Part shown: positions 11,850 through 64,000 of the stretch, piece after piece
How the letters are laid out: every line of letters starts with the position of its first letter
Numbering within the stretch: the first letter of the stretch is position 1
Assembly: GCA_028284325.1 (NCBI GenBank)
Contig: JANQRX010000011.1
Location: forward strand, 11,792 to 75,791
Direction: 5' to 3'
Source: Bauldia sp.
GTDB lineage: Bacteria > Pseudomonadota > Alphaproteobacteria > Rhizobiales > Kaistiaceae
DNA: 64,000 nt
The notes under the pieces: model-generated
Database searches by the model: none
What the model was told of the DNA's origin: nothing
What the model saw: the letters and a program-made list of their open reading frames with translations, nothing else
Position numbers and translations under genes: made by a program

Positions 11850-11885
11850 GATCCTGCCGCCCGGACTAGAAGACCAGCCCCGACC

Positions 11886-15161: not shown

Positions 15162-15557
15162 CTGTTCCTCCCTCACCTTTGGTTTGATGTCACTACGCAT
15201 GCTCCGAACCCTCCATTTCGGCGCCGTCGTTATCTATTCCGGGTTATTGAAGCGCCTCACTTTCCAGTCGGCTCGGAGCCATCCAAACTGCGAACCCGCT
15301 CGGGCAAGATGACCAACCTCGAACCCACGCAACGCGATCAACATCAACGCGGTCATGCCCGACGCGTTGCGCGCATATATAAACTAGCTGTTCCTATTTG
15401 ACCAGATATCCGGCGCCACATATGGCGATGAAATCGCCGACGCGGCCTAATCCGTTGGTCTTGTTGCCTTTGTTGGCTGGCTTGCGGTCAGTCCGTTCAG
15501 GGACGTGGGTGCCGGCCGATACCGATCGAGTAGAACCACCGATTTCGCTGAGTCGGT

Positions 15558-15598
15558 TGGTTGGCCGGGGCAGGATCCGAACTTGCGACCTTCAGGTT
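15558..15598 (-). pseudogene. decayed 3' half of an initiator tRNA-Met-like gene (att-type relic)
   Basis: The reverse complement reads AACCTGAAGGTCGCAAGTTCGGATCCTGCCCCGGCCAACCA. The canonical alphaproteobacterial tRNA-fMet 3' half, from memory, is AACCTGAAGGTCGCAGGTTCAAATCCTGCCCCCGCAACCA. Homology starts in the anticodon loop. The T-stem is broken and there is a 1-nt indel. No 5' half is present. Confidence 0.4.
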
Positions 15599-15773
15599 GG
15601 TACCCATGACGGTCAGCGCTCGCGATGATGGCCGGCCGAGACAGAACGCTGTTGTGGGGGACGGAGTGGGTGGCGACCTGCAGGCGGTCGCCGACAAAAC
15701 GGAGCCTCGAAAAGAAGCGAGAGCATCCGGGGAGCAAGCCCCACCTAACCCCCTGAGATCATCACCACCGATC

Positions 15774-15823
15774 ACAGCTTCCCAAGCCGCATGTCGTCGG
15801 TTCGATTCCGATCACCCGCTCCA
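15774..15823 (+). repeat. direct repeat of tRNA-Gly(CCC) 3' half (attR-like)
   Basis: acagcttcccaagcCgCatgtcgtcggttcgattccgatcacccgctcca versus 7214-7263. There are two T>C differences, at 15788 and 15790. Confidence 0.9.
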
Positions 15824-15868
15824 GACATCCCGTCTCACACACGCCTCAAGACGTTGATCATCTGAAAC

Positions 15869-16861
15869 TCAGGCGTCCGCGGGGTAGACGACGTCGGCCG
15901 GCTGTCCGGCGGTCAGGGAGGAAAGTGCCGCGAGCTGGATCGCCAGCGAAATCGACGCCTTGCCGATGGGGCTCTCCGGCGGTGCACGGCCGTCGATGGT
16001 GTTGATGAAGGCCTGGTGTTCGCGCTCATAGACCGGATCGCGGTCAGTGGAGAACGTCTCGTGTGTCGCCTGACCGTCGGCATGAATGTCGAGGTTGCCG
16101 CCGTTGAAATCGAGCATCGCCGACCCGCGCGACCCGATCAGATGGTAGCGGTGGACTTCCGGCTCCTGCAGGTAGTCGAAATGGGTGTATGCCGAAAACG
16201 GCGCGTCGTAGCTGTACTGCACCGACACCAGATCGGGATCGGACGTCGGTGATCGATTGCCGCCGCGCATGCCCGAAGCGAACACCGACCGGGGCCGCAA
16301 TCCGGACAGCCAGACGATGGCGTCCGGCTGATGCACATAGTCCAGGAGCAGCGCACCAAACGTCGCCGACTGGTAACGCGATATGGAGTTGGTCAGCGTG
16401 CGATAGCTGCCGACATGGCAGGCGACGTGCAGGAGGTCACCGAAGCGCCTTTCCTCCACCAGCCGCTTGAGCCGGAGCATGCCGGGATGGAAGTGCAGGT
16501 GAAACCCGTAGCACAGCACCCGATCGCCATCGCGGCTCTGGTCAAGCAGGTCTTTCGCGTCGGCCAGGGAATCGCTGACCGGTTTCTCGCACAGGACGTG
16601 ACATCGCGCCTCCAGCGCCGAGCGACACTGTTCCACGTGAAGATGGTGCGGTGTCGCGATCACCATCGCGTCCGGACCGGTGTCGATCACCTCGTCCCAG
16701 GTACGGCAGAAGGCGAGCGCCCGGCCGTCGAGTTTCTTCTCGGCCGCAGAAAGCGCCTGCCCGGACGAATCCATCACCACGACCGAAACATCACGCCGCT
16801 TCGACAAAAGGCGAGCATGACGGAGACCGATCGAGCCAAGGCCGACAACAGCAACTTTCAC
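15869..16861 (-). CDS. Gfo/Idh/MocA family oxidoreductase
   Basis: GTG at 16861 (VKVAVVGLGSIGLRHARLL Rossmann start) within ORF 15869..17026. EKP motif (LCEKPV). 330 aa. Confidence 0.85.
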   Translation of the reverse strand: MKVAVVGLGSIGLRHARLLSKRRDVSVVVMDSSGQALSAAEKKLDGRALAFCRTWDEVIDTGPDAMVIATPHHLHVEQCRSALEARCHVLCEKPVSDSLADAKDLLDQSRDGDRVLCYGFHLHFHPGMLRLKRLVEERRFGDLLHVACHVGSYRTLTNSISRYQSATFGALLLDYVHQPDAIVWLSGLRPRSVFASGMRGGNRSPTSDPDLVSVQYSYDAPFSAYTHFDYLQEPEVHRYHLIGSRGSAMLDFNGGNLDIHADGQATHETFSTDRDPVYEREHQAFINTIDGRAPPESPIGKASISLAIQLAALSSLTAGQPADVVYPADA

Positions 16862-16871
16862 AGAAGCAATC

Positions 16872-17690
16872 CTACTTCCAAACAGAGAAGCCGCCGTCGA
16901 CAACGAGATTATGCCCGTTGACGTAGTCCGAGGCGGCGGCGGCAAGAAACAGGGCGGCGCCCTTGATGTCGACGGTGTCACGTCCCATGCGGCCGACCGG
17001 AACCTTTCGCGCGTAGTCCGCGACAAACCTGTCCGGGAGCCGGCGCGGCCCGAACCCTCCTGGCGAAATCGCGTTCACACATATGCCGTGTGGTCCGAGC
17101 CATGCCGCCAGATCCCGCGTCGCGCCGATCACCCCGGCCTTGGCGGCGGCATAGTCGATCGGCTGGCCGGCCATGCCGGCGTCGGCATAGATCTGCCGGT
17201 CACGGCCGACCAGGCCGGCGATCGACGCGATGTTGATGATCTTGCCGGTCCCGCGGGTCATCATGCCGTCGGCAACCGCGCGGCACATGAGCAGCGTGCC
17301 GGTGAGGTTCACCTCGATCATGCGCCGGATCACCGCCGTGTCGCGCCGCGTGAGCTCCGCCGCCGACTCGCTCGATCCGCCGCCGGCATTGTTGATCAGG
17401 ATATCGATCGGCCCGAGCCGTTCCGTCGCCGTCGCTGCCGCGCCCGCAACCGACTCGTCGCGGGTGACGTCAAGCTCGATCCCGATCGCGTGCCCACCGC
17501 CGTTTACCAGGCGCTCAGCGGCTGCGATGGCCCTGGCACGGTCACGCGAGGTTACGGCGACACGGGCACCGGCCTCGCTCAAGGCCTCGGCCATGTCGTA
17601 GCCGAGGAAGGAGGCGCCGCCGGTGATGAGCGCGTTCCGTCCGGTCAGGTCGAACAGCGCCGGGACGCGCGGCTGATCACTCGTCTGCAT
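16872..17690 (-). CDS. SDR family oxidoreductase (gluconate 5-dehydrogenase-like)
   Basis: ATG at 17690 (MQTSDQPR...). TGGASFLG cofactor motif, NNAG, and the YAAAK catalytic YxxxK. 272 aa. Confidence 0.88.
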   Translation of the reverse strand: MQTSDQPRVPALFDLTGRNALITGGASFLGYDMAEALSEAGARVAVTSRDRARAIAAAERLVNGGGHAIGIELDVTRDESVAGAAATATERLGPIDILINNAGGGSSESAAELTRRDTAVIRRMIEVNLTGTLLMCRAVADGMMTRGTGKIINIASIAGLVGRDRQIYADAGMAGQPIDYAAAKAGVIGATRDLAAWLGPHGICVNAISPGGFGPRRLPDRFVADYARKVPVGRMGRDTVDIKGAALFLAAAASDYVNGHNLVVDGGFSVWK

Positions 17691-17823
17691 TGGTCCCCAA
17701 TCCGCGCGCCCATGACCCGGAGCGATGCCGGTGCAGATCAATCCCACAGGAAATCTGAAGCACTGATTGCACATTATTGCCACGCGCCGCGGCCTTGAAT
17801 TAGTCTCAGGCGTCAGAAATCTA

Positions 17824-18858
17824 ATGAATTGCGACAACCAGACCGCGAAACCGGCGATGGCGAAAGACAGTCCGAAACTCCCGCGCCACTTCGTCATAGC
17901 CGTCGAGCCGGAGTTCTCGTTCAATTCGTACATTCTTCTCACCGAGGTTCTGCGCATCGCGAACCAGAACACCGGCCGGAACCTGGTGGCGTGGCAAACC
18001 GTGGCGGCGGATCGAAACCCGGTCCGCGCCACCAACGGCATGTGGATCGACATCGACACGCCGTTCTCGGACGTCGAGGACGCCGACGTGGTGATCGTCG
18101 TGGGCGGCAACCTCCCGACGCAAACGCTCCACCCCAAACTGCTCGACCCGTTGCGGCGCATGGCACGACACGGAAAGCTCGTCGGGGCGACTAATGCCGG
18201 AACGTTTGCACTGGCGCGCGCCGGTCTCCTCGACGGTTACGAGTTCACCACCCACTGGGAAACGCGCTCGACCTTCAGCGAGCATTTTCCCGAGCTCGTG
18301 CCGTCGTCCGCCATCTATGTTCACGATCGCGACCGCTTCACCTGCGCCGGTGGAACGTCGACCATCGACGCGGCCCTGGATATCCTGTCGGACTATTTCG
18401 GCCCGGAACTCTCGGCCGAAATCGCCAACGGCGTCGTGCATCACATTCGCCCGGCCTCCACGCCACAATTGAATCGCGATCGCAAGCCCAATCCGGCATC
18501 GCTGTCGCGGCGCATCGTTCAGCTCATGGAGGCCAACATCGAGAGTCCGCTGTCCACCGACGAGCTGGCGCAGCGGCTCGACATCAATCGGCGCACGCTG
18601 GAGCGGAAATGCTTCAAGGGTCTCGGACAGACGCCATCGAAGCTCTATCTGAAGATCAGGCTCCAGGCCGCCCGCAATCTCCTGTTCTACGACGACCTGC
18701 CGGTCGGCGAAGTCGCACTCATCTGCGGGTTCACCTATCCCAGCGTTTTCAGCCGGGCCTTCAAGAAGCAGTTCTCGATCTCGCCGCAGAAGTTCCGGGC
18801 CAACTTCCGGATGCAGCAGGGCAAGTCCATGCGGCCGGAGCTGTCACGCGAGCTCTAG
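17824..18858 (+). CDS. GlxA-type AraC family transcriptional regulator (DJ-1/PfpI-like N-domain + HTH)
   Basis: Class-I glutamine-amidotransferase-like N-terminal domain followed by a C-terminal AraC HTH (LSTDELAQRLDINRRTLERKCF...ICGFTYPSVFSRAFKKQF). The start is uncertain: 17767, 17824 or 17857. Confidence 0.85.
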   Translation: MNCDNQTAKPAMAKDSPKLPRHFVIAVEPEFSFNSYILLTEVLRIANQNTGRNLVAWQTVAADRNPVRATNGMWIDIDTPFSDVEDADVVIVVGGNLPTQTLHPKLLDPLRRMARHGKLVGATNAGTFALARAGLLDGYEFTTHWETRSTFSEHFPELVPSSAIYVHDRDRFTCAGGTSTIDAALDILSDYFGPELSAEIANGVVHHIRPASTPQLNRDRKPNPASLSRRIVQLMEANIESPLSTDELAQRLDINRRTLERKCFKGLGQTPSKLYLKIRLQAARNLLFYDDLPVGEVALICGFTYPSVFSRAFKKQFSISPQKFRANFRMQQGKSMRPELSREL

Positions 18859-19803
18859 GAGTTCCTGGCCCGCCTCGCTTGCGTGATACGCGCGCAACTC
18901 ACCGCGGGCCGTACCGCCCAGCGTCGCAAACGGCCTGCGACAGACGCCGACGTCGATGCCCTGCAATGACAGCAGATACTTGGTGCTGGCGAGCACGCCG
19001 TAGGGGATCATGATCCTCACCAGGTCACAGACCTTGGCCTGCTCGATCCTTGCGGCATCGAGGTCGCCGGCCGCGGCAAGCTCGTGCACGCGGCGGATAC
19101 GTCGGCCCTGCACGCAGTAGGTCGTGCCGATCCCCGCGTCCGCCCCCATGACCAGACCGGCCAGAAGGATCTCGTCGTAGCCGTTGAACAGCACGGCCCG
19201 CGGATGCGAACGCCGAAGTCCGTTCAGATGGAAGAGGTTGTGGTCGGTGTATTTCACGCCGGCAACGTTATCGATATCCAGCAGGCCCGCGAGTCTGGCC
19301 GGCTCCAGCCGAACGTTGGCCGTCGAGGGGGCGTAGTAGACCACCATGGGCAGGTCAGTCGCGCGCGTAAGCTCGGAAACGTAGGTATGCAGCTCGTCGG
19401 CGGAGAACCCGTAGTAGTGCGGCAGGGTTGACGACAGCGCGTGGAATCCAAGCGCCGCGGCGGCCTCGGCCATACGCTGCGCGGCGGTCAGCGAAACGGC
19501 GCCGACCTGGGCGATCAGATGGGTTTCCGGCGCGGCGGCCTGACAGACAACCCGGAACGTCTCGATCCGTTCCGCGTCGGTCAGCATCATGACTTCGGCC
19601 GATCCGCCGCCGGCATAGACCCCGCCAATCCCCTGGCCTTCGCCATGGCGGATCAGTTGCGCCAAAACATCGAGGTCGAGTGTTTCGTCGTCGCGAAACG
19701 GCGACAACGCGGCGGCGTGCAGCGTGCGCATGGCCGGCCTGGTCGTCCCGGCCTCAGCCGCTTTCGCGTCCGGATCGCCGGATGGAGGAATCGGCGTGCT
19801 CAT
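18844..19803 (-). CDS. dihydrodipicolinate synthase/N-acetylneuraminate lyase family (class I aldolase)
   Basis: 319 aa. GVYAGGGSAE motif and Schiff-base lysine context VAGVKYTD. Last gene of the ABC operon (ATGA overlap with the ATPase gene). Confidence 0.85.
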   Translation of the reverse strand: MSTPIPPSGDPDAKAAEAGTTRPAMRTLHAAALSPFRDDETLDLDVLAQLIRHGEGQGIGGVYAGGGSAEVMMLTDAERIETFRVVCQAAAPETHLIAQVGAVSLTAAQRMAEAAAALGFHALSSTLPHYYGFSADELHTYVSELTRATDLPMVVYYAPSTANVRLEPARLAGLLDIDNVAGVKYTDHNLFHLNGLRRSHPRAVLFNGYDEILLAGLVMGADAGIGTTYCVQGRRIRRVHELAAAGDLDAARIEQAKVCDLVRIMIPYGVLASTKYLLSLQGIDVGVCRRPFATLGGTARGELRAYHASEAGQELLELA

Positions 19804-20912
19804 CGGTTCGTCGTTCCACCATTGGCGACGGCGACGCCGTTGCGATCGAAGACGTGACAGAGACCGGCATCGAGGCCGAGTTCGATGTCGTCATAGGCGC
19901 GCGACGCGGCCGCACGGCCCTGCTTGCGAACGATCAGCGGGCCGGCGGGATTGTCGGGTGCATAGAGATACGCTTCGTCGCCCAGTTTCTCCACCGAGCC
20001 GACCGTGGTGCGCAGCCTCGCCCCCGATTCGTCCGGTTCGACGAAATGCTCGGGGCGTATCCCGATACTGACTTGATCGCCCACCTGCATGCCGTCCGTC
20101 GGGCAGTCGAAACGGAGCGGATCGCCGAGCTGCCCGTCGATCGCAACGCCGATCCCGGCCGCCGTCAGTTCCCTGAGTTCACCGGACAGGAAGTTCATCT
20201 TCGGTGATCCGATGAATCCGGCGACGAACCTGTTGCCCGGCCGTTCGTAAAGCTCGGTCGGCGTTCCGACCTGCTCGATGACGCCATCGCGCAGAACGAC
20301 GATGCGATCGGCCATCGTCATGGCTTCGATCTGGTCATGAGTGACGTAGATCGACGTGACGCCCAGATCGCGATGCAGGTTCGTCAGTTCGACCCGCATC
20401 TGCACGCGAAGCTCGGCATCGAGATTGGACAGCGGTTCGTCGAAAAGAAACACCTTCGGCTTGCGGACGATACACCTGCCGATCGCCACCCGCTGGCGCT
20501 GGCCGCCGGACAGCTCTCGCGGCTTTCGATCCAGCAGGTCCTCCAGGCGGAGCGTGCGGGCGATCTCCTCGACCTGGGCCCGGCGCTGCCGCCTCGGCAC
20601 GCCTTCCATGCGCAGCGCGAAGCTCATGTTGTCGGCCACGGTCATGTGCGGATAGAGCGCGTAGGACTGGAACACCATCGCGACCTGCCGTGCGGAGGGC
20701 GAGATGCCGCGCATGGACCGCCCGTCGATGCTCAGCTCTCCGTCCGTCAGCACCTCCAGCCCGGATATGAGCCGCAGGAGGGTCGACTTGCCGCAACCGG
20801 ACGGCCCGACGAACACGACGAACTCGCCCTCCTCCACATCGAGGTCCACCCCGTGGATCACATCCACTGGTCCGAACGACTTTCTGACGTTGCGCAACTC
20901 GACCATGCTCAT
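19800..20912 (-). CDS. carbohydrate ABC transporter ATP-binding protein (UgpC/MalK type)
   Basis: Walker [10 protein letters not shown], signature LSGGQRQR, Walker [12 protein letters not shown], and a C-terminal TOBE-like regulatory domain. Confidence 0.92.
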   Translation of the reverse strand: MSMVELRNVRKSFGPVDVIHGVDLDVEEGEFVVFVGPSGCGKSTLLRLISGLEVLTDGELSIDGRSMRGISPSARQVAMVFQSYALYPHMTVADNMSFALRMEGVPRRQRRAQVEEIARTLRLEDLLDRKPRELSGGQRQRVAIGRCIVRKPKVFLFDEPLSNLDAELRVQMRVELTNLHRDLGVTSIYVTHDQIEAMTMADRIVVLRDGVIEQVGTPTELYERPGNRFVAGFIGSPKMNFLSGELRELTAAGIGVAIDGQLGDPLRFDCPTDGMQVGDQVSIGIRPEHFVEPDESGARLRTTVGSVEKLGDEAYLYAPDNPAGPLIVRKQGRAAASRAYDDIELGLDAGLCHVFDRNGVAVANGGTTNR

Positions 20913-20923
20913 CGGAACAAGTC

Positions 20924-22048
20924 CTAGCCAATCTTCAGAACGGTTTGATGGATCGCGGTGACGTCGTCCGTCCGCGCGTAGTAGATGGCGACGACCTCGC
21001 CATCGCGGCGCACGCAGGCGGTGGGATAGCCCAGATCCATGTTCGGCAGGTCCCGAACGACGACCGGATCGTCCCAGTCGAACGTCATGCCGTCATCACC
21101 GGAGACGTAAAGGCGAATCCCGTACGGCGGAACGCGGCGGCCGACGATGACGGCCACGCGTCCGTCGGCGAGGCGAAACGGATTGGCCGGATACTCCGGA
21201 ACGCCAAGCGCCTCCGGCGCCGACCAGGTTGCGCCGCTGTCGTCGGAGACGACCCGGTACAGGCTGCGCGTCGTGAGTTCGCGCAGGAACAGGATCACCC
21301 GACCCTCATCGGTGACGATGCCGCCGGGTTCCTCGAAGTCGAGACCCTGTTCCTCCGCGACCACAAACGGCGCCGACCAGCTCGCACCGCCATCTGTCGA
21401 CTTGATGCCGAACGTCACGTGGTTGCGCGGCGCGTCGCTCAGCGCCAGGAAGATGCTCCCGTCGGGCAGGATCTGGCCGCCACGCATGCCATAGGCGCCC
21501 ATGTACGGCTGGAACGCGACCGGGTGCGCCTGCCGGAACGTTCGGCCGCCATCGTGGGAGACGCGAACCCACATCTCGCCGTTGCCGCGATACCAGGGGA
21601 ACAGGCGCTCGGCGCTGTCCTCGCTCGAAAACCAGTCGCCGATCTCCTGGGACTCGACCACCGACCGCAGAACGTCGCGTGGCCCCATGGTCGTCGCGCC
21701 GACGAGCCCGGCCTCGACCACCGGCGCCGGGTACCAGTGGAACCGCCACTGGTTCAGCATCACCGAAGAACCGCCGAGCGCGGTCAGGCCCGCGCATTCG
21801 GTGCCCGTCCAACTGTAGTCGGGCACCGGCGTCGGCGGCGACCACGAGCGGCCTTCATCGTCCGAGCGGGTCACATAGTTGGCGAACAATGGCTCCTGCG
21901 GCGGGTGGAGGATGCACGCGCGGCGCGGCGCCCGATTGAACACCATCACCCAGGCGCCGTCCTCGAGCACGACCGCGTGCGGGTGGGCGCAATAGGCGAG
22001 CGGCTCGGCATGAACGACGCTGTGCTGGAGGATGTCGGCGTTGGGCAT
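20924..22048 (-). CDS. BNR/Asp-box repeat protein (sialidase-fold glycosidase-like), cytoplasmic
   Basis: Five Asp-boxes: SDDEGRSWS, SHDGGRTF, STDGGASWS, SDDSGATWS and SGDDGMTF. No signal peptide and no obvious RIP motif. Confidence 0.75.
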   Translation of the reverse strand: MPNADILQHSVVHAEPLAYCAHPHAVVLEDGAWVMVFNRAPRRACILHPPQEPLFANYVTRSDDEGRSWSPPTPVPDYSWTGTECAGLTALGGSSVMLNQWRFHWYPAPVVEAGLVGATTMGPRDVLRSVVESQEIGDWFSSEDSAERLFPWYRGNGEMWVRVSHDGGRTFRQAHPVAFQPYMGAYGMRGGQILPDGSIFLALSDAPRNHVTFGIKSTDGGASWSAPFVVAEEQGLDFEEPGGIVTDEGRVILFLRELTTRSLYRVVSDDSGATWSAPEALGVPEYPANPFRLADGRVAVIVGRRVPPYGIRLYVSGDDGMTFDWDDPVVVRDLPNMDLGYPTACVRRDGEVVAIYYARTDDVTAIHQTVLKIG

Positions 22049-22055
22049 CTGTCGT

Positions 22056-22934
22056 CTACTGCTTGATCCCGCCCTGCGAGATGCCGGAGATGAAGTGTTT
22101 CTGGAGCAGGAAGAACACGACCAGGCTGGGAATGCTCAGCATGGTGATCGCCGCCATCGCAACCGCATAGCCTTCGATCTGGGTATGGGTTCCGACGTTG
22201 GGCGCGAACTGCGCAATCCCGACCGGCAGGGTCTTCATGCTCTCGTCGAAGGTGACCAGCAGCGGCCACAGGAAGTTGTTCCAGTTGAGGGTGAAGATGA
22301 TCACCGCGGCGGCGACGGCCGGCGCACGGGCGAGCGGAAAGGCGATCAGCCAGAAGGCGCGCATGATGTTGGCGCCGTCCATGCGCGCCGCGTCCAGCAG
22401 CTCTTGCGGAAACGACAGGAAGAACTGCCGGAAGATGTAGAGGCTGAGCACATTGGCGATCATCGGCAGGATCAGCGCCTGGTAGGTGCTGGCCCACCCG
22501 ACCTTCACGAAGGCGAGCAGCATCGGCACGACCGACACCTCGGTCGGCACCATCAGCGACGCCAGAAAGACCATGAAGATCGCCCCGCGGCCGGGAAACC
22601 GCATGCGGGCCAGGGCGAAGCCGGCCATGGCGCCGAAGACGACGCAGAAGAACGTGGCGATGATCGCCTGGACCGCGCTGTTGAGCGCCCAGCGCAGAAC
22701 CGGCAGTTCGAACACCTGGATGAAGTTGTCGATGGTCACCCGGCGGGGAATCCACTCGATGTGCGTGGTCAGGACATCCTCGGGATACTTGAACGACGTG
22801 GTGACCATCCACAGGAACGGTGACGCCCAGGCGAGGAGAAACAGCATGCCGCCGATCCAGATCGGGATGTCGACGACGCGCAGGCCCCGCTCGTGCAGAT
22901 ATGTGCTGATCCGCTCCACCAGCGCCGCCATCAC
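22056..22934 (-). CDS. carbohydrate ABC transporter permease (CUT1)
   Basis: EAA loop LLDAARMDGANIMRAFWLIAFPLARP. Six TM helices. Confidence 0.9.
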   Translation of the reverse strand: MMAALVERISTYLHERGLRVVDIPIWIGGMLFLLAWASPFLWMVTTSFKYPEDVLTTHIEWIPRRVTIDNFIQVFELPVLRWALNSAVQAIIATFFCVVFGAMAGFALARMRFPGRGAIFMVFLASLMVPTEVSVVPMLLAFVKVGWASTYQALILPMIANVLSLYIFRQFFLSFPQELLDAARMDGANIMRAFWLIAFPLARAPAVAAAVIIFTLNWNNFLWPLLVTFDESMKTLPVGIAQFAPNVGTHTQIEGYAVAMAAITMLSIPSLVVFFLLQKHFISGISQGGIKQ

Positions 22935-23839
22935 ACCGTCTCCCGGAGAACGGTGCGATGCAGGAGGGTGACGACAAGGATGAGGATGAACAGGAGCACG
23001 CCGATCGCCGAGGCGTAGCCGAACAGGTAACGCTCGATGGCAACGTTGTAGATGTAGTGGATGGGTGAGGCTGACGCGCCGGCCGGCCCGCCATTGGTCA
23101 TCACGTAGACCTGGCTGAAGATGCGCAGCGTGGCGATGAGCTGCAACGTCACGACCATCGACAGCGCCGGCCGTATCAGCGGCAGCGTGACGAACCAGAA
23201 ACGTTTGATCCGGTTCGCCCCATCCATTTCGGCCGCTTCAAGCAGGTCCTTGGGCACGTCCTGTAACGCCGCCAGAAAGAGGACGAAAGCGAGCCCCATG
23301 TCCCACCAGACCGAGGCGATCGAGACGCCGAAAATCACCCATTCGGCCGACGTCAGCCACGGGATCGGATCGACCCCCACCCGACCGAGATAGACGTTGA
23401 TCAGCCCGTACCTTGTGTCGAGCAGCCAGACCCACACCAACCCGATGACGGTTGCCGAGACGACGTGGGGCGCAAAGAACAGCGTGCGCGCGATGCCGGT
23501 CAGGGGGTAGCCGGCGTTCACGAACAGGGCCGCACCGAGCCCCAGGACGACCACCCCCGGAACGATGAGCAATCCGTAGATCAGGACGTTGGTGAACGCC
23601 TGGTGGATCCAGGGATCGCTCAGGGCCTGCAGATAGTTGGCGGCGCCAACCCAGTCGGGGCTGCCGATGATGTTCCACTCGGTCAGCGAAACGAACAGGC
23701 CGAACAGGATCGGCCCGACATTGAACAGCAGAAACGGGACCGCAAAGAAGGCGACGAACAGATAGCCCGTCCACTCGATCGGTTCCGCCTGTTTCATCCG
23801 GTGACCGCGCTGGTCGATCGCGGCGTGCTCGTCCTGCAT
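22931..23839 (-). CDS. carbohydrate ABC transporter permease (CUT1)
   Basis: EAA loop LLEAAEMDGANRIKRFWFVTLPLIRP. 4-nt overlap with the next permease gene. Confidence 0.9.
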   Translation of the reverse strand: MQDEHAAIDQRGHRMKQAEPIEWTGYLFVAFFAVPFLLFNVGPILFGLFVSLTEWNIIGSPDWVGAANYLQALSDPWIHQAFTNVLIYGLLIVPGVVVLGLGAALFVNAGYPLTGIARTLFFAPHVVSATVIGLVWVWLLDTRYGLINVYLGRVGVDPIPWLTSAEWVIFGVSIASVWWDMGLAFVLFLAALQDVPKDLLEAAEMDGANRIKRFWFVTLPLIRPALSMVVTLQLIATLRIFSQVYVMTNGGPAGASASPIHYIYNVAIERYLFGYASAIGVLLFILILVVTLLHRTVLRETV

Positions 23840-23856
23840 CGATTGGTACTCAAAAT

Positions 23857-23886
23857 GCCGTCCGGAAGATTACTCCCCCGGACGGC
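23857..23886 (-). other. intercistronic stem-loop after the SBP gene
   Basis: GCCGTCCGG (23857-23865) pairs with CCGGACGGC (23878-23886), giving a 9-bp GC stem. It lies between the SBP stop (23916) and the permease start (23839). Confidence 0.45.
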
Positions 23887-23915
23887 AAGATCACACGCCA
23901 AAGGCGTCGCCGAAC

Positions 23916-25295
23916 TCAGCCCTTGTCGAGATTGGCCTGCCAGTGGGCCTTGAGTTCCGCCATCACCTGCTCGGGCGTCTTGATGCCCGTCCAGGCGCCG
24001 TCGAGGGTCTTCTGCAGGAAGCCGCCGCCAGCGTAGATCGCGAACTCCGGCGAGGTGGTCACCGGCACGTCGGCGATGGTGGCGAATTCGAGCCCGTCGA
24101 TGAAGGCCTGGCGGTACTGCGGCGGATGGGCGTCGCTGATGTAGCGCGGATCGGCCGCGATCGACTTGCGCGGCGTTCCCCCGCGGCCCTTGGTGACCCA
24201 GAGCAGCGAGTTGTCGGACAGCCACTTCATCGCCGCCATCGTCTGCTCGTAACGGCTGGTATCGGACTGGACGTACATCTCCAGACCACCCATGTCGAAC
24301 CAGGTGACCTGCTTCTCGCCGACCTTCGGGAACAGGGCGGTCTTGAAGTTCAGCCCCTGCTGGATGTAGCCGTTGAGGGTCCACGGGCCGGTCCAGAAGA
24401 TCGAGCCCTGTCCGGTTCCGAAGCCCTTGTAGCGATCGGTCACCTCGCGGGTCGACACCTTGTGCTTGTCGAACAGGTCGATCACCCATTCCATCGCCCG
24501 GATGCCGGCCTCCTCGTTCACGCAGGCGGTCTTCAGGTCCGCGCTGGCGCGTTCGAAGCCCATCTGTGCGGAGACGATGCCCCAGGTGACGCTCGGATGG
24601 ATGTCGCTGCCCGTCATCATGATGCCGGAACGCGTGATCCCGGAGCTGTCGCTGCGGGTCATGGCCTTGGCCCACTCGATCAGCTCGTCGCCATCCTTCG
24701 GCGCGCTCTCCGGATCGAGACCGGAATCGACGACGTGATCCAGGTTGATCTCCGGCTGCATGCTCATGAGATCCATGGGCACGCACCATTTCGAATCGCC
24801 GTGTTGCGGATACCTGGTCTTGCTGACCGCAAAATCGTTGAAGTCGCCCCAGTCGAGACCGACCTGCATGGAGACCTCGTCGAGCGGAACTACGACGCCG
24901 TCGTTGATCTGCTGCAGCCGCCGACCGGTCTGACACCAGCCGAAGTCGGGCGCCTTGCCCGAAGCGGCGGCGGCCAGAACCTTGGTCATGTACTGGCTTC
25001 CGGTGACGACCTCGGAGCGGATCTGAACGCCCTTGTTCTTGTGGGCGTCGTTGAAGTTCTGGATCATCTGCGCCCAGACCTCACCGTCGGACGCGGTGAG
25101 CCAGCTCCATGTCACCAGCTCGATGGAATTCTGTGCCAGGGCCGGCATCGGGAACGTGCCCGTCGCGGCCGTGAGGCCGGCCACGCCGGCCGCCGAGGCG
25201 GCGCCTCCCAGAAAACGGCGTCGGTCGATCTGGCGTGTCCCGGCGCCGTTCGAACTCGGGCCGGCGCTCTTCCCGGATTTCGATTTCACAGTCAT
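23916..25295 (-). CDS. carbohydrate ABC transporter substrate-binding protein with Tat-type signal
   Basis: ATG at 25295, preceded by GGAGGAG. N-terminus ...TRQIDRRRFLGGAASAAGVAG...ALAQ is a twin-arginine signal. 459 aa. Confidence 0.88.
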   Translation of the reverse strand: MTVKSKSGKSAGPSSNGAGTRQIDRRRFLGGAASAAGVAGLTAATGTFPMPALAQNSIELVTWSWLTASDGEVWAQMIQNFNDAHKNKGVQIRSEVVTGSQYMTKVLAAAASGKAPDFGWCQTGRRLQQINDGVVVPLDEVSMQVGLDWGDFNDFAVSKTRYPQHGDSKWCVPMDLMSMQPEINLDHVVDSGLDPESAPKDGDELIEWAKAMTRSDSSGITRSGIMMTGSDIHPSVTWGIVSAQMGFERASADLKTACVNEEAGIRAMEWVIDLFDKHKVSTREVTDRYKGFGTGQGSIFWTGPWTLNGYIQQGLNFKTALFPKVGEKQVTWFDMGGLEMYVQSDTSRYEQTMAAMKWLSDNSLLWVTKGRGGTPRKSIAADPRYISDAHPPQYRQAFIDGLEFATIADVPVTTSPEFAIYAGGGFLQKTLDGAWTGIKTPEQVMAELKAHWQANLDKG

Positions 25296-25697
25296 TGGCT
25301 CCTCCGTTGTCGCCTCATGCCGCCAGCGAAAATCGCAACATCGCCGCTGCGCACGGGGTCGAGACTTGGCAAAGCGTAGACACGGCTCCGGGGAGCAACT
25401 GTGCAAAATACGACAGGGATTTATCAGAATTCTACAGGGGGCGCGGCGCAGGGTCTCGCGGCTCAGTGACCTGTTCGAACTGGTCACGGGCATGGGATAC
25501 TGCGACCACAACATTACATGAGTTGCGGCAAGCGTGGGACACTCGACCCGGCCTCCGCAGAACACTTCAGAAGAAGGCACGGTCCGAGTACCAGAAGAGG
25601 TGCGCCCCGAGTAACCGGACGAATACGACGATCCACATCACACTTGCCGAGACGGGCATTCGATCGACACAAGCCGTCTGCTAGGAAGGATGGACCA

Positions 25698-26393
25698 ATG
25701 CCAGCTGGGCGTCCCGCAAAAGTCGACCACGTCCGAGAAGCGTTCCTGCGCGAAGTGGACCAAGCCATCTCGCTAGTTGACGCGATCGGAGCTATTCCTG
25801 CCAAAGTTAGACCGTCGAACAACGTCGGGCTTCACCCTAAACACGCTGGTCAAGTGGCGGGTCTCGCCTTTATGGGCTTAGTGGCCTCGTGGGAGGAGTT
25901 CTTAGAAAGGACGTTGGTTCGCTACTTGACCGGCGCCAAGACAGATAGCGGCTACTCTCCAACACTTAGGGCCGGGCGAGCTCCGACAATTGAGAATGCC
26001 TATAAACTTCTTTCCCTTGACCCAGAATACAAGCCGGAGAAGTCCTTTCTGAAGGTCACGGACACCCGATGGGTGCGAATGGTGGCCGATTTCTATTTTT
26101 CTCGTCATCCCTACGGTGTCCTTCAGAACCAAACTGGCCTGCTGAAACACGCCAGCAAAATCCGCAATCGGATTGCTCACGGTTCAACTAAATGCAAAAC
26201 GGAGTTCAAGGACACCGCCATCTACTTCTTGCGGCCTCCAAATAATCGTTTGAAGCAAGGATTTGGACCGGCCGCACTCCTCCAGAGCCCGGTGCAACGT
26301 CATTTCGGTCAGCAGGCGGTTAATGCCCAGACGAGCCACCTCGCCGCGTATGCTGATTTCTTTCGATCAATGGCCAGATCGATTGTCCCTTAG
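25698..26393 (+). CDS. HEPN-motif protein (putative RNase / abortive-infection-like), family unresolved
   Basis: ATG at 25698 after AGGAAGGA. 231 aa and soluble. The C-terminal LLKHASKIRNRIAHGS contains the Rx4H HEPN catalytic motif. Local GC is about 45-58% on lines I counted, against about 67% in the flanks. Confidence 0.55.
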   Translation: MPAGRPAKVDHVREAFLREVDQAISLVDAIGAIPAKVRPSNNVGLHPKHAGQVAGLAFMGLVASWEEFLERTLVRYLTGAKTDSGYSPTLRAGRAPTIENAYKLLSLDPEYKPEKSFLKVTDTRWVRMVADFYFSRHPYGVLQNQTGLLKHASKIRNRIAHGSTKCKTEFKDTAIYFLRPPNNRLKQGFGPAALLQSPVQRHFGQQAVNAQTSHLAAYADFFRSMARSIVP

Positions 26394-60553: not shown

Positions 60554-60561
60554 CCGCGACG

Positions 60562-60648
60562 CCCTACCGGTCGAACGGTGCGACCGTGACGCGTCGGCTG
60601 AGGAGGAAGGCGTCGGCCACATGGGCGAGCGGCTACAGATCCATGTCG
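60562..60648 (-). repeat. direct repeat copy A: displaced, decayed 3' end of the dehydrogenase gene
   Basis: 87 nt, 76/87 identical to 62150-62236. On the minus strand it reads DMDL*PLAHVADAFLLSRRVTVAPFDR*. The live gene end reads DMDLSPLAHVADAFLLGRRLTAAPFNW*. Confidence 0.9.
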
Positions 60649-62149
60649 CTGCCCGTCAACCGATCATGCGAAGGGCCGCTCCCTCGACTTCGTCCGTCCG
60701 CCTTGTCCAGCCCCTGCCGAACGTTTCCCAGGTCTTGAGCGAGCGGTAGTAGTCCATGCGAAGCTGGCTGAATCGGCGAACGACCCATGACGCATCGAGA
60801 CTGTCGACCGCGCCGACGGTGATCGGGCCGATCACGCCATCGGCATTGGCACCGCAAACGCGCTGAAGCAGCTTCGCAGATCGGCCCGGGCCGGCGTTGA
60901 CGCCGAAGTCGAACGTCACGAGATCGACGCCGTGCGGGAGGCTATCGCAGTTGAGCGGCTTCCAATACCTGGCCTCGTAGATGTTCCGCGCTTCTTCCTC
61001 GGTCAGGTCCTTCACGTCCTGCTTGGTGATGGCGGTACCGCGCCAGTCTTTCAGCGTGTTGAAGGTGATACCCATATTGGTGGCGCCGCCGGGATCGTTC
61101 GGGTGATCGACATAGCCGCCCTCCTTTTCCAGGATGATGGCGACACAACGCTTGAAGTTCGACGGTTTTGGCTGCTCGGGGACCGGCTCGACCCGGACTG
61201 ACCTTTCCTTGAGAATCGCCTCCGTCTGCTCCGCCTGGCGCTCGATGATTCTCGCCGACTCGCTGGCGGTCTTGGCCTGTATCTCGACGGCCGCGAAATC
61301 CTTGTTGCGTGAGCCCTGCGACGACCCGAGCCAGAAGCTGATCACGGTGGCGAAACCCGCGGTCAGCGCACCGATGGCGATGTTGACGATCTGCGAGACT
61401 TCTTTGACGAGTTCATTGGTCGACGGGTTGAACCAATTGCTGACCAGAACAGCGAGAATCCAGAAGAAGCCGACAGAGACGACCAGCGAGATGACGACCG
61501 GCCCCCAGGCAAAGGGATTGCGAGCCCTCGCCAAGTCAGCGAAGCTCGTCCGCGCGGCTTGCGTGTCCGCGATTTCCGCCTGGAACTTACGGAAATCGTC
61601 GTCCCGCAGTTTCGCGTCCTCCTCAAACCGCAGTCGCATCGCCTCCATTTCGGCTTTGCGCTGTGCCTCAGCCTGCTCGATCTGCAGTTTCTGCTCGGCG
61701 AGTTCGTGCTCGCGACGCTTTTGCTCTTCTTCCGCCGCTATTTCGGCAAGCTTGATTTTCAGTTCCTTCTCCGCGGCCGGATCGCTCTCGATCTTCTTCT
61801 GTGCGTCGGCCGGAACGGATGTTCCGGCAGCGTTGCTCACCGCTTTTGTCACGGCATCGACAACACCTGCGGAATCGCCGCCTATGACGGCTTTCAAGAT
61901 GTCCGGAAAAACCGACGCCGCGATCGCGACCAACGGATTCATGATGCCGCCCTCCCAAATACAATCTTGGGTTGACAGTAGTTAAAGTTGTGGCGGCGTG
62001 CAACCGTACGTGCCCCTTGGCTGGAGCGGCGGTTCGGATTGCGATCGACCGTTGCGCTTGGGCGTCGGACGACCCTTCGGGCCGGGGTGTGGCCAGGAGC
62101 GACCGACACCGTCCGTAGCGGAAACGGGCCCGCAGGCCCTACACCGACT
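60649..62149. mobile_element. 1.5-kb single-gene cassette between 87-bp direct repeats (no recombinase)
   Basis: Lies between repeat copies A and B. Contains only the holin-like/GH108 gene plus about 200 nt of upstream DNA. GC is lower than the flanks (48-63% on lines I counted). Confidence 0.45.
60656..61942 (-). CDS. fusion protein: holin-like N-terminal membrane/coiled-coil module + GH108 N-acetylmuramidase + PG_binding_3
   Basis: 428 aa. The N-terminal module is a Gly/Ala amphipathic head, a Glu/Lys/Gln coiled coil, and TM helices WGPVVISLVVSVGFFWILAVLV and IVNIAIGALTAGFATVISFWLG. The C-terminal part has the GH108 signature ILEKEGGYVDHPNDPGGATNMGIT followed by DGVIGPITVGAV, a peptidoglycan-binding region. 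RBS GGGAGGG. Confidence 0.8.
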   Translation of the reverse strand: MNPLVAIAASVFPDILKAVIGGDSAGVVDAVTKAVSNAAGTSVPADAQKKIESDPAAEKELKIKLAEIAAEEEQKRREHELAEQKLQIEQAEAQRKAEMEAMRLRFEEDAKLRDDDFRKFQAEIADTQAARTSFADLARARNPFAWGPVVISLVVSVGFFWILAVLVSNWFNPSTNELVKEVSQIVNIAIGALTAGFATVISFWLGSSQGSRNKDFAAVEIQAKTASESARIIERQAEQTEAILKERSVRVEPVPEQPKPSNFKRCVAIILEKEGGYVDHPNDPGGATNMGITFNTLKDWRGTAITKQDVKDLTEEEARNIYEARYWKPLNCDSLPHGVDLVTFDFGVNAGPGRSAKLLQRVCGANADGVIGPITVGAVDSLDASWVVRRFSQLRMDYYRSLKTWETFGRGWTRRTDEVEGAALRMIG

Positions 62150-62236
62150 CCCTACCAGTTGAACGGTGCGGCCGTGAGGCGGCGGCCGAGCAGGAAGGCG
62201 TCGGCCACATGGGCGAGTGGCGAGAGGTCCATGTCG
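62150..62236 (-). repeat. direct repeat copy B (functional 3' end of the dehydrogenase gene)
   Basis: See copy A. It includes the stop codon and 2 nt beyond it. Confidence 0.9.
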
Positions 62237-63090
62237 ATCCCCCCGGCGTGGACCAGCGCCGCCATCCGGGCATAGAGCCGCGGATACTCGCCCTGCAGCG
62301 CGTCGTCGCCGGCGGGCGCGGCCTGGACGTCGCCGTCGATCGCGAGTTTCGCCCCGCCCTCGGACAACAGCATGTAGCCGCCATTGGTCTCGGCCTCGAT
62401 GGTCCAGGTCTGGTCGCCCTCCTGGCGCCAGTCGAACGCGGCCGAGATGTCGGCGCCGTGCGGATGCGCGAAGGCAAGCGAGGCGGCGATGGGCGTCTCG
62501 CAATTCTCGGGGAACTCCAGCGTCGCCGCGGTCAGCCGGATCGGATCGGGCAGGATCCTGGTCACGATCGACAGCGCGTTGATGCCGGGATCGAAGACGC
62601 CGACGCCGCCGGCCTGCCAGATCCATTCCTGCCCCGGATGCCAGCGGCGCACGTCCTCCTTCCAGACGACCTTCAGCGACCGCAGATGCTTGTCCGCAAG
62701 CCAGGCCCTCGCCGCCTCGACCTGGGCGGCCTCACGCGAATGCCAGGTGGCGTAGATCGAAACGCCGGCCGCCCGTGCCATCGCCTCAAGCTGTTGGCAT
62801 TCGGACAGTGTCGCGCCGGGCGGCTTCTCCAGCATCACATGGCGGCCGGCCTGCAGCGCCGCTGCGGCGTAGTCGAAGCGCGGCACCGGCGGCATGCACA
62901 GGGACACGACCTCGACATCCGGACGGGCGGCCAGGAAGGTGTCCAGATCGGTGAAAGCCTCCACGCCGTCGACGCGGCCGTGGCGGGAAACCGTCGCCGC
63001 CAGCTCCCAGTCCGGCGACGCAGCGATGCTCGGCACGTGCTGATCGTGGGCAATCTTGCCGATACCGGCAAGGGCGATCTTCCGCGTCAT
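62152..63090 (-). CDS. Gfo/Idh/MocA family oxidoreductase (D-galactose/L-arabinose 1-dehydrogenase-like)
   Basis: ATG at 63090 (MTRKIALAGIGKIAHDQHVP) within ORF 62152..63693. LEKPP motif. 312 aa. Confidence 0.85.
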   Translation of the reverse strand: MTRKIALAGIGKIAHDQHVPSIAASPDWELAATVSRHGRVDGVEAFTDLDTFLAARPDVEVVSLCMPPVPRFDYAAAALQAGRHVMLEKPPGATLSECQQLEAMARAAGVSIYATWHSREAAQVEAARAWLADKHLRSLKVVWKEDVRRWHPGQEWIWQAGGVGVFDPGINALSIVTRILPDPIRLTAATLEFPENCETPIAASLAFAHPHGADISAAFDWRQEGDQTWTIEAETNGGYMLLSEGGAKLAIDGDVQAAPAGDDALQGEYPRLYARMAALVHAGGIDMDLSPLAHVADAFLLGRRLTAAPFNW

Positions 63091-63104
63091 CGGTGTTTCG
63101 TCCC

Positions 63105-64000
63105 TCAGAAGTGCCGGGGCGGCTCCGGCCTGTTGTCGACCACGGCTTCGATGGCCTCGGCCAGATCGTCGGTGAAACGGTCGCGCGCATCGAGGGCCGC
63201 AAGGTTGTCCTGGAGCTGCTCGAGGCGCGAGGCGCCGAGGATGACGGTCGAGACGTGCGGATTGCGCAGACACCACAGCAGCGCCATGTGGTGCAGCGGC
63301 AGGCCCGCGTCGTCGGCCAGCTTGGCGAGTTTCGCGACGATCGCCAGCCTGAGCCGCCCTTCCTCCGACTCCCAGCGCTCCTTCAGCCATTCGTAGCCCG
63401 GCAGGTTCATGCGGCTGTCGGCAGGCACGCCGTCGGCGTACTTGTTGGTGAGCACGCCGGAGGCGAGCGGCGACCAGATGGTGGTGCCGAGACCGACGAG
63501 GTCGTAGAGCGGCAGGTAGTCGCCCTCGACCTTGGTCCGTTCGAACAGATTGTACTCCGGCTGCTCCATCGTCGGCGGCGTCAGGCCGTTGGCGCGGGCA
63601 AAGCCCCAGGCCTCGGTGATCTGCTGCGCCGACCATTCCGACGTGCCCCAATAGAGGACCTTCCCCTGCGTCACCAGGTTGTGCATCGCCCACACGGTCT
63701 CTTCGATCGGCGTGTCGATGTCGGGCCGGTGGCAGAAGTAGAGGTCGAGGTAATCGACCTCCAGCCGCCGCAGCCCGGCGTGGCAGGCGTCGGTGATGTG
63801 CTTGCGCGACAGGCCCCGGTTCATCGGCCCCCGGCCGCCGAAGAACACCTTGGTCGACACGGCATAGGTATCGCGCGGCCAGGCCAGGCGCTTCAGTGCC
63901 TCGCCCATGACCTTTTCGGCGTTGCCCGCCTCGTAGCCCTCGGCGTTGTCGAAGAAATTGACGCCGCCATCATAGGCTTCGGCCATCATCGAGGTCGCCA
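63105..64000 (-). CDS. aldo/keto reductase (Kv-beta-like), 5' end beyond window
   Basis: Motifs FDNAEGY, LDLYFCHRPD and VSTVILGASR. The reading frame is still open at position 64000. Confidence 0.88.
   Translation of the reverse strand, partial: ATSMMAEAYDGGVNFFDNAEGYEAGNAEKVMGEALKRLAWPRDTYAVSTKVFFGGRGPMNRGLSRKHITDACHAGLRRLEVDYLDLYFCHRPDIDTPIEETVWAMHNLVTQGKVLYWGTSEWSAQQITEAWGFARANGLTPPTMEQPEYNLFERTKVEGDYLPLYDLVGLGTTIWSPLASGVLTNKYADGVPADSRMNLPGYEWLKERWESEEGRLRLAIVAKLAKLADDAGLPLHHMALLWCLRNPHVSTVILGASRLEQLQDNLAALDARDRFTDDLAEAIEAVVDNRPEPPRHF

Follow-up and report, generated by a model that had tools for sequence, protein, structure and literature searches.

The 64,000-nucleotide (nt) stretch of a Bauldia sp. 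contig analysed here (hereafter the window) carries on its minus strand, at positions 60656-61942, a gene whose single product joins a membrane module, a GH108 muramidase with intact catalytic residues and a peptidoglycan (PG)-binding tail. A preliminary description of this DNA had proposed such a polypeptide, and the proposal is borne out. The architecture of the fusion gene, its family membership and its insertion at the present site are assigned with high confidence. As to its function, we give about an even chance to the reading that the fusion is a self-contained, single-polypeptide lysis or wall-breaching protein, holin-like and derived from phages. The interpretation offered in that description is partly supported; we regard the fusion as an undescribed, widespread variant of holin-endolysin systems, of which the window copy is a recently inserted member. 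In the literature we found no description of the module or of the proteobacterial fusion. The gene and its parts are as follows.

60656-61942, minus strand: complete fusion gene (module, GH108 and PG-binding tail), 428 amino acids (aa); an open reading frame (ORF), with the identical protein called on the source contig.
61784-61942, minus strand: amphipathic helical head, residues 1-53 (MNPLVAIAASVFPDILK...), with no transmembrane (TM) helix; from the AlphaFold2 (AF2) model and a Hessa scan.
61526-61783, minus strand: long Glu/Lys/Gln-rich helix, residues 54-139, which ends in D-T-x-x-A-R; from AF2 and alignments.
61430-61516, minus strand: TM helix 1 (TM1), residues 143-171 (WGPVVISLVVSVGFFWILAVLV); from the apparent free energy of membrane insertion (dGapp) and AF2.
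61298-61396, minus strand: TM helix 2 (TM2), Gly/Ala/Ser/Thr-rich, with the FWLGSSQGSRNKD motif, residues 183-215; from dGapp and conservation.
61157-61297, minus strand: linker, helical and then proline-rich, residues 216-262, poorly conserved (identity 0.21); from AF2.
60890-61156, minus strand: GH108 muramidase catalytic domain, residues 263-351, with E274, D283 and T288; from Pfam PF05838 and the alignment with SagA.
60659-60889, minus strand: PG_binding_3-like helical domain, residues 352-428; from Pfam PF09374 (below cut-off) and the alignment with SagA.

The ORF runs from an ATG at 61942 to the stop codon at 60656, exactly where the gene had first been placed. Its C-terminal half is, as far as can be judged from sequence, an active-looking GH108 N-acetylmuramidase with a PG-binding domain. 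The profile Glyco_hydro_108 (PF05838) matches residues 268-351 (E = 1.9e-31, 108.9 bits against a cut-off of 21.2), the protein contains the GH108 signature EKEGGYVDHPNDPGGATNMGIT, and the enzyme part is matched by phrog_315, labelled 'endolysin', at E = 1.5e-53. PG_binding_3 (PF09374) scores 21.2 bits (E = 3.3e-4), just under its cut-off of 24.6, and most homologues are annotated with PF09374. Residues 262-424, including the PG-binding domain, align with SagA of Brucella abortus (E = 4e-45), and a fold search against SagA gives 44% identity and a TM-score of 0.89 (normalised to the length of SagA). The catalytic residues of SagA are Glu17, Asp26 and Thr31 (PMC8334348); they align with E274, D283 and T288, respectively, of which the first two are invariant in the family and T288 is at least 90% conserved. 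The PF05838 score and the SagA alignment confirm the earlier assignment of the C-terminal part (about 165 aa) to GH108; for its PG_binding_3-like tail, the PF09374 match is just under cut-off and the alignment with SagA extends over the region.

The N-terminal half is described by an AF2 model built on 35 homologues (mean predicted local distance difference test score, pLDDT, 85.5) and by the family alignments. In the head, helices are modelled at residues 3-11, 15-20, 24-39 and 44-53 with a pLDDT of about 76-95; no stretch of the first 48 residues scores better than a Hessa dGapp of +7.0 kcal/mol (family mean +8.0), and P13 is invariant. Residues 55-139 form one 85-residue helix, the length of which differs among relatives; A130 is invariant and R131 at least 90% conserved in an alignment of 39 modules, and both are invariant in an alignment of 35 members. 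TM1 inserts readily (dGapp -2.8 kcal/mol, family mean -2.6), while TM2 is marginally hydrophobic (+1.0 kcal/mol, family mean +1.5). In the model the second TM helix begins at residue 178 and runs on helically to 249, followed by coil at 250-262. When 82 family members are scanned on the Hessa scale, exactly two segments prove competent to enter the membrane, both within residues 143-205. The earlier layout of an amphipathic head, a long helix and two or three TM helices therefore stands for the head, the long helix and two TM helices, and falls for the third, given the dGapp of +7.0 in the head. Within the family, identity is highest in the motif (0.89) and in TM2 (0.79), lower in the catalytic domain (0.65) and lowest in the linker (0.21). 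That TM2 and its FWLGSSxGSxxKD motif, the most conserved stretch of the protein, exceed the catalytic domain in conservation argues for a specific membrane function rather than for mere anchoring.

By profile similarity the N-terminal module is assigned to phrog_1544, a family of unknown function: residues 2-221 match profile positions 4-195 of 200 (E = 4.2e-11), and the modules of all 39 relatives tested match as well (best E = 2.9e-34). The preliminary description had likened this half to the three-TM holins associated with gene transfer agents (GTAs). This comparison fails, since the Pfam scans are without a match and the module has two TM helices, not three. A Pfam scan of the window protein at E <= 10 returned no GTA_holin_3TM (PF11351), although very weak matches may be hidden by the HMMER filters, and neither did scans at E <= 10 of ten divergent phage-type relatives taken singly. 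In a batch of 39 modules PF11351 is absent from the top 25 of 121 families, and at most one member could match it at E > 0.0055. Other Pfam holin families gave matches at noise level only for the window protein, the 39 modules and the ten phage-type modules, so that the N-terminal half has no similarity to any holin profile beyond noise. NCBIfam has no match for the module, and the window protein scores 87.5 bits with NF040573 against a cut-off of 240. A search with the module fold in PDB and BFVD found nothing significant; the top match, a phage protein labelled GTA holin, is non-significant (E = 0.04, TM-scores 0.23-0.29).

An exhaustive profile search of 1.84 billion cluster representatives found 4,480 relatives of the module at 50% clustering. 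The best 150 of these comprise 74 stand-alone proteins (about 175-300 aa), 40 fusions of module and GH108, 12 larger GH108 proteins and 24 proteins with other or unidentified extensions. Truncated relatives also occur, namely P0121 (270 aa) and L055 (201 aa before a premature stop). A basic tail after the last TM helix is typical of holins, and the stand-alone forms carry strongly basic tails right after TM2, for example SSKGSADKSKKLNLQGG and SSDGSRRKDMMMRGGK. Physical and contextual features expected of a holin are thus present, namely TM helices (two), basic C-terminal tails in the stand-alone forms and a location in lysis cassettes.

This location is seen in the 173 viral contigs that encode the module. 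In the best 80 of these loci the module is a stand-alone protein in 79 (median length about 173 aa), and a GH108 gene lies at most two genes away in 11. A census of neighbours with PHROGs is dominated by endolysins of several unrelated classes (phrog_315, 7, 181, 894, 9506, 317 and 1519), together with amidases and a chitinase type. For example, in the cultured Rhodoferax phage P26218 the last base of a gene for GH108 and a PG-binding domain is the first base of the module gene. Vibrio phage 1.256.O has the gene for an M15 peptidase upstream of the module and that for a coiled-coil protein downstream; in a P2/HP1-like Vibrio phage a lipoprotein gene follows the module; a Mu-like locus has the order GH108, 189-aa ORF, module and DUF2730, the last a homologue of releasin (PMC9239132); and a split arrangement also occurs, in which the module gene is followed by a separate GH108 gene. 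The databases give little hint of this role: 59 phage records are matched, and among the 40 listed all but one say 'hypothetical' or 'TMhelix protein', the remaining one 'holin'. Because its stand-alone relatives adjoin endolysins in phages, the module is related to phage lysis and is probably of phage origin. One phage-like contig departs from the usual picture (L089, positions 4977-6842): here the module stands among four other small membrane or secreted proteins (a 137-aa multi-TM protein, a 64-72-aa protein with coil and TM helix, a 154-aa protein with an N-terminal TM helix and, after the module, a 92-aa secreted protein). No recognisable endolysin is called at this locus, and its lysis cassette may be atypical.

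GH108 is not the only enzyme to which the module is joined. Fusions exist to a PF11860 muramidase and to an M15 peptidase, and proteins of 560-1040 aa carry GH19, GH24 or CHAP with PG_binding_1 on the N-terminal side of the module and GH108 on the C-terminal side. All these fusions lack a signal or anchor at the N-terminus (dGapp +7 to +15) and hold the two TM segments of the module; P0145 has an extra marginal segment (dGapp +2.6). Six proteins of 670-1040 aa (P0144, P0147, P0151, P0157, P0176 and P0180), again without a signal peptide, place up to three wall hydrolases (GH19 or GH24, CHAP/NlpC, and GH108) and two PG-binding domains around the two-TM module, a 'sandwich' architecture of which we know of no earlier description. 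A 718-aa version (CHAP-like, PG_binding_1, module and GH108; L252, positions 8001-10157) is encoded on the opposite strand inside a dcw cluster, between ddl and murB, and adjoins the gene for a small GIY-YIG endonuclease. Another multi-hydrolase version (L253, positions 8001-18031) lies near genes for AAA_25, a BTAD regulator, a metacaspase-like Peptidase_C14 and Y4kD_C, with a second muramidase (PF11860, PG_binding_1 and DUF2272) nearby, in what looks like a cell-death or defence island.

The topology of the module is provisionally read as N-in/C-in, with the muramidase beginning in the cytoplasm. Over 82 members the mean number of Lys and Arg residues is 2.56 before TM1, 0.90 in the loop between TM1 and TM2 and 2.60 after TM2; given an even number of TM helices and the positive-inside rule, the muramidase is predicted to start in the cytoplasm. 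The multi-hydrolase fusions point the same way: hydrolases lie before as well as after an even number of TM helices, and since those on the N-terminal side lack a signal, the enzymes would have to begin in the cytoplasm.

In bacterial genomes the fusion is a single gene amid unrelated housekeeping genes wherever it was examined. A search with the window protein finds 344 homologues (protein clusters) at E < 1e-5. Among the 120 homologues listed, query coverage is at least 92%, in nearly all cases 100%, and length is 398-475 aa, apart from about ten of 650-720 aa with an added PG_binding_1. The fusion is present in at least 316 of about 185,000 species-representative genomes and spans Rhodobacterales, Hyphomicrobiales, Acetobacteraceae, Reyranella, Chromatiaceae and Accumulibacter, and thus also Beta- and Gammaproteobacteria; in the databases its proteins are named 'GH108 family protein' only. 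It had earlier been called unusual, which holds in the sense that it is undescribed and does not hold in the sense of rarity. When about 860 flanking ORFs were clustered and 99 immediate neighbours surveyed with Pfam, no recurrent partner gene emerged, only clade-level synteny with housekeeping genes, and no phage families among those 99 neighbours. Neighbours recur within clades only: the gene is divergent from nuoA in 10 Rhodobacteraceae loci and has one fixed neighbour in 8 Roseomonas loci. This clade-limited recurrence indicates a probable history of long vertical residence punctuated by horizontal transfer. PADLOC-DB gave no match to a defence system (LeoBC appears as a noise-level coiled-coil hit at E = 0.002), and five relatives gave nothing. 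Two contigs of one Rhodospirillales metagenome-assembled genome (L065 and L078) each hold a fused gene, so some genomes may have more than one copy.

The window copy, too, lies amid ordinary genes. Each of ten large ORFs sampled along the window has a common metabolic function, and the genes called around the fusion encode an aldo-keto reductase, a GFO/IDH/MocA oxidoreductase, a 164-aa protein, an M24 peptidase and a GntR regulator. No phage or GTA structural gene is found among the sampled ORFs or the called neighbours, in agreement with the earlier statement that the gene is an orphan in this respect. Elsewhere in the window a stretch of about 20 kb (6001-26000) has a GC content of 0.61-0.64 against 0.69-0.72 upstream and starts near a tRNA-Gly(CCC) gene (7189-7263); it carries DUF2961, SBP_bac_5, a short-chain dehydrogenase and a sugar ABC-transporter ATPase, and may be an acquired catabolic island.

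With respect to regulation, the upstream regions of 82 loci share no family-wide motif; LexA-type boxes are confined to a single clade, and an enumeration of dyads gave no information. The sequence GTTC-N7-GTTC, which we take to be the alphaproteobacterial type of LexA operator, is found exactly in 6 of the 82 loci against 0.5 expected. In Acetobacteraceae of the Roseomonas group the box lies at -33 and overlaps a conserved promoter-like element (L048, L056, L062, L066 and L071; L080 with one mismatch); L083, whose upstream sequence is unrelated, has the same box at -40, over its -10 region. Lysis genes of prophages and bacteriocins are SOS-induced, and the boxes suggest that the fusion gene of the Acetobacteraceae clade may likewise be expressed upon damage. 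A full CtrA box (TTAA-N7-TTAA) is absent from all 82 upstream regions; 3 Rhodobacteraceae loci have CtrA half-sites in this region, where 0.2 would be expected. The window copy has neither a LexA box nor a CtrA box upstream, and no site in its spacer passes a consensus promoter scan.

The window copy also bears the marks of its arrival. The preliminary description had spoken of a repeat-flanked cassette, and two direct copies of a 98-nt sequence do flank the gene. The features concerned are:

60557-60654, minus strand: left copy of the repeat, a displaced pseudo-copy of the 3' end of the oxidoreductase gene, reading SDMDL-stop-PLAHVADAFLLSRRVTVAPFDR-stop.
61943-62144, minus strand: spacer carried with the fusion gene, 202 nt; from sequence and hairpin fold.
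62145-62242, minus strand: right copy of the 98-nt direct repeat, the functional 3' end of the oxidoreductase gene, reading ...IDMDLSPLAHVADAFLLGRRLTAAPFNW-stop.
62152-63090, minus strand: target of the insertion, a GFO/IDH/MocA-family oxidoreductase of 312 aa; from the gene call, Pfam PF01408 and orthologues 54-80% identical.

The copies are 86% identical (blastn E = 3e-26), occur only twice in the window and differ by 6 synonymous and 7 non-synonymous codons (counted by hand on the aligned copies). The right copy consists of the final 29 codons of the oxidoreductase gene together with the stop codon and 8 nt. The left copy begins 1 nt past the stop codon of the muramidase and encodes the same C-terminal peptide, interrupted by an in-frame stop. 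Both resemble the C-termini of orthologous oxidoreductases. A 513-aa ORF over the oxidoreductase (62152-63693, minus strand) is a spurious upstream extension due to high GC, the true start being at 63090. Because the right copy is the true end of the gene and the left a pseudo-copy, the spacer, the fusion gene and one repeat copy (1,588 bp) are a unit inserted into the last 98 nt of the oxidoreductase gene, whose reading frame is intact because the unit brought a duplicated end. The GC content at third codon positions of the fusion gene is 0.77 against 0.85-0.90 in all neighbours. The 1.59-kb unit is thus a recent insertion, acquired horizontally together with its own ribosome-binding site: the spacer has a strong Shine-Dalgarno sequence (GGGAGGG, 61950-61956), along with weak -35/-10-like hexamers (TTTAAC, 61981-61986, and TTGTAT, 61959-61964) that are assigned to a promoter by inference. 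Only the proximal 45 nt or so of the spacer are shared with the upstream region of the closest relative, L001. At 62126-62139 (minus strand), 13 nt past the oxidoreductase stop and within the inserted spacer, a GC hairpin (GGGCC-TGCG-GGCCC) followed by GTTTCC may end transcription of the oxidoreductase and insulate the muramidase gene.

Flanking repeats are found at none of 82 other loci of the family. The repeat is therefore a trace of this one acquisition and no trait of the family, and its interpretation as an att site or cassette signature of the family is ruled out. An empty site was not recovered, as the 80 loci with oxidoreductase orthologues (54-80% identity) lack synteny to the window. 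The unit may have entered by single-crossover (Campbell-type) integration of a circle or by homology-facilitated illegitimate recombination.

If the fusion acts as a holin-like lysis protein, its mode of action might be as follows. The signal-less protein would insert N-in/C-in, with the head and the long helix in the cytoplasm, a two-helix membrane hairpin ending in the invariant FWLGSSxGSxxKD motif, and the muramidase held on the cytoplasmic face by the linker of about 50 residues. The module would accumulate in the membrane and, as holins do, oligomerise or be triggered; the triggered module would then breach or locally rearrange the inner membrane, and the tethered enzyme would gain access to the murein. 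At low dose this would open the wall locally, and otherwise lead to autolysis. Both the holin-like action and the physiological role are presumptive; plausible roles are damage-induced altruistic autolysis, the release of DNA, vesicles or particles, and dose-limited local opening of the wall. The self-contained lysis or remodelling device of the preliminary description accordingly holds for the intact enzyme and the phage-lysis module, while the lytic action is one that we infer.

Several observations weigh against a holin-like lysis protein. The module has no similarity to proven holins in sequence or fold, and the label of holin draws on context and physical features only. The topology is drawn from simple rules, and TM2 is just marginally hydrophobic (family mean +1.5 kcal/mol): if TM2 does not span the membrane, TM1 becomes a signal-anchor and the enzyme periplasmic. 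Some phage cassettes with the module hold other small membrane proteins that are possible true holins (as in L089), a lipoprotein or coiled-coil gene is sometimes found 3' of the module (in two Vibrio phages), and the module could itself have an accessory part, for instance that of an antiholin or of a spanin-like protein. The SagA of Brucella, a membrane-tethered GH108 enzyme, has a proposed role that is non-lytic (PMC8334348). A potentially lethal gene kept vertically in several clades would need tight control, and the LexA, CtrA and promoter scans make no regulator of the window copy evident in the spacer. Finally, the source is a coral metagenome, and the database sequence runs that hold the gene are DNA runs only.

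Part of these points is captured by an explanation that we regard as unlikely and nevertheless take seriously, namely that the protein is an anchored housekeeping or remodelling muramidase without holin action: TM1 would act as signal-anchor, TM2 would not span, and GH108 would be exported by Sec/YidC to the periplasm, where it opens the wall locally for an envelope machine or for turnover. This agrees with the closest solved relative (SagA, 44% identity), a GH108 enzyme tethered to the membrane for which a role in opening PG for a type IV secretion system (T4SS) has been proposed, with the marginal TM2 (dGapp +1.5), with the stable inheritance in several clades amid housekeeping genes and with the one relative within a dcw cluster. 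In SagA, however, the order is inverted, the enzyme preceding a lone TM helix at the C-terminus; the Lys/Arg counts favour C-in, and signal-less hydrolases on the N-terminal side of the module in relatives make Sec export implausible. Moreover, the stand-alone relatives are genes of phage lysis cassettes, the gene is scattered, being present in 316 of about 185,000 species genomes, and not core, and there is no recurring secretion-system or other partner nearby. It is distinctly improbable, in our view, that the module is an accessory of the lysis cassette, be it an antiholin or timing regulator, a releasin-like protein or an unconventional spanin-type protein whose long helix contacts the outer layers, so that it tethers and regulates the enzyme while another factor breaches the membrane. 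The chromosomal fusions are solo genes with no recurrent partner to make the hole, the domain order is the reverse of that of inner-membrane spanins (coil before the TM helices), and the fusions with an N-terminal signal-less hydrolase put the coil in the cytoplasm. What speaks for an accessory comes from the phages: three small membrane proteins and a secreted 92-aa protein flank the module in L089; next after the module come a lipoprotein in the P2/HP1-like Vibrio phage, a coiled-coil protein in Vibrio phage 1.256.O and a releasin homologue in the Mu-like locus; and of the 59 phage records matched, only one among the 40 listed has the label 'holin'.

Very improbable is also a non-functional remnant of a decayed prophage or of random transfer, with no current role. 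The insertion is recent and compositionally foreign, no promoter passes the consensus scan, and truncated relatives exist (P0121 and L055); against this, the ORF is full-length with catalytic residues and module motifs intact and a strong Shine-Dalgarno sequence, full length is conserved in hundreds of species at chromosomal positions fixed within clades, and no other prophage debris lies near the gene. The proposal of the preliminary description that the gene is a domesticated GTA lysis gene, here one that would release particles like those of the Rhodobacter capsulatus GTA (RcGTA), is in our judgement scarcely credible. In its favour, the uncultured host is placed in the Rhodobacterales, its PutA being 70-72% identical to those of Celeribacter, Paracoccus and Tropicimonas; this is an order in which all 21 complete genomes examined have an RcGTA-like structural cluster (PMC5026251); the best, non-significant fold match of the module is labelled GTA holin (E = 0.04), and CtrA half-sites are found in 3 Rhodobacteraceae loci against 0.2 expected. 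In R. capsulatus and Dinoroseobacter shibae, however, GTA release depends on a separate endolysin/holin pair. The genes of this pair, rcc00555 and rcc00556, are present in 19 of 21 Rhodobacterales genomes with fixed synteny by cycJ and have been inherited since the ancestor of the order (PMC5026251); the pair of D. shibae is homologous and likewise separate (PMC6473078). The window protein, by contrast, has no PF11351 match and falls far short with NF040573 (87 bits against 240), and the fused family, sporadic and mobile as it is, has members in Beta- and Gammaproteobacteria and Acetobacteraceae as well. The search for GTA genes and CtrA control that had been suggested earlier returned, as far as it extended, no GTA genes among the ORFs sampled in the window, no full CtrA box upstream of the gene and an unrelated neighbourhood.

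Holin-endolysin lysis is normally a two-gene system. As in the S/R cassettes of phage lambda, a signal-less muralytic enzyme is combined here with a small TM protein that has a basic cytoplasmic C-terminal tail, and stand-alone relatives of the module adjoin endolysins of many classes. In contrast to the lambda cassettes, both functions reside in one polypeptide, the module has a cytoplasmic head and helix of about 140 residues that classical holins lack, and the fusion gene stands alone in the chromosome, without spanin or phage genes near it; its product has no homology to proven holins. The nearest precedent is the TpeE-family fusion of holin and endolysin in Clostridium sporogenes, known from six genomes and with a single short TM segment (Brüser & Mehner-Breitfeld 2022, PMC9527704), in which, too, a holin-like membrane segment covalently precedes an endolysin and an amphipathic helix follows the last TM segment. 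It differs in that it is Gram-positive and has one TM segment, whereas the family described here comes from proteobacteria, combines two TM helices with a large N-terminal domain, is found in at least 316 species and includes forms with hydrolases at both termini. SagA has closely related GH108 and PG-binding domains with Glu, Asp and Thr kept and is likewise membrane-tethered without a signal peptide, but its enzyme is N-terminal and its single TM helix C-terminal (223-245); Salmonella TtsA differs in having no TM helix. Neither SagA nor TtsA has the phrog_1544 module, and their proposed roles (T4SS assembly and toxin export, respectively) are non-lytic. The RcGTA pair resembles the fusion in combining a GH108-type muramidase (rcc00555, NF040573) and a membrane protein of about 180 aa (rcc00556, GTA_holin_3TM) in an alphaproteobacterial host, to which the weak fold hint towards a GTA-holin-labelled protein may be added; unlike it, the pair consists of two separate syntenic genes (PMC5026251), and the fusion fails both models, has two TM helices and not three, and is sporadic and mobile. 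SAR (signal-anchor-release) endolysins and pinholins (P1 Lyz and S68 of phage 21, respectively) share the weakly hydrophobic, Gly/Ala/Ser/Thr-rich character of TM2 and, in part, an enzyme tethered before action. However, the SAR helix lies at the extreme N-terminus with the enzyme already periplasmic, while here a cytoplasmic domain of 140 residues and two TM helices come first. We reject a SAR endolysin, since the N-terminus is a non-TM head (dGapp +7.0) and the TM helices come after a soluble region of 140 residues. An inner-membrane spanin (Rz-like) is rejected as well, given that the coil precedes the TM helices and that the chromosomal fusions have no adjacent lipoprotein gene (one phage has one).

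A bolder form of the holin-like reading is put forward tentatively, as possible rather than probable. The module might represent a new holin-like class of 'auto-exporter', a two-TM hairpin with a cytoplasmic helical domain for sensing or oligomerisation, which would carry attached folded, signal-less hydrolases across the inner membrane from either or both termini. It might have been domesticated repeatedly as a one-gene switch for autolysis or wall opening, under SOS control in Acetobacteraceae. A related idea has been formulated for holins of a different kind, namely that cargo on the C-terminus of a holin is carried across the membrane, with natural fusions as the key argument (PMC9527704). 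If the auto-exporter reading is true, the present family would be a widespread Gram-negative counterpart of the very fusion invoked for non-lytic transport by holins.

Natural covalent fusions of holin and endolysin have, as far as we found, been reported once, from six Clostridium genomes (PMC9527704), and the proteobacterial family is far larger. Its phrog_1544 module is fused to at least five types of hydrolase, sometimes at both termini and without export signals, and has stayed invisible in databases because the proteins are annotated as 'GH108 family protein' only. The family opens to test how a tethered folded enzyme crosses the inner membrane, what function a common phage family such as phrog_1544 has, and why bacteria retain solo lysis genes amid housekeeping genes. 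A compact one-gene lysis cassette of this kind would serve programmed lysis in Gram-negative hosts.

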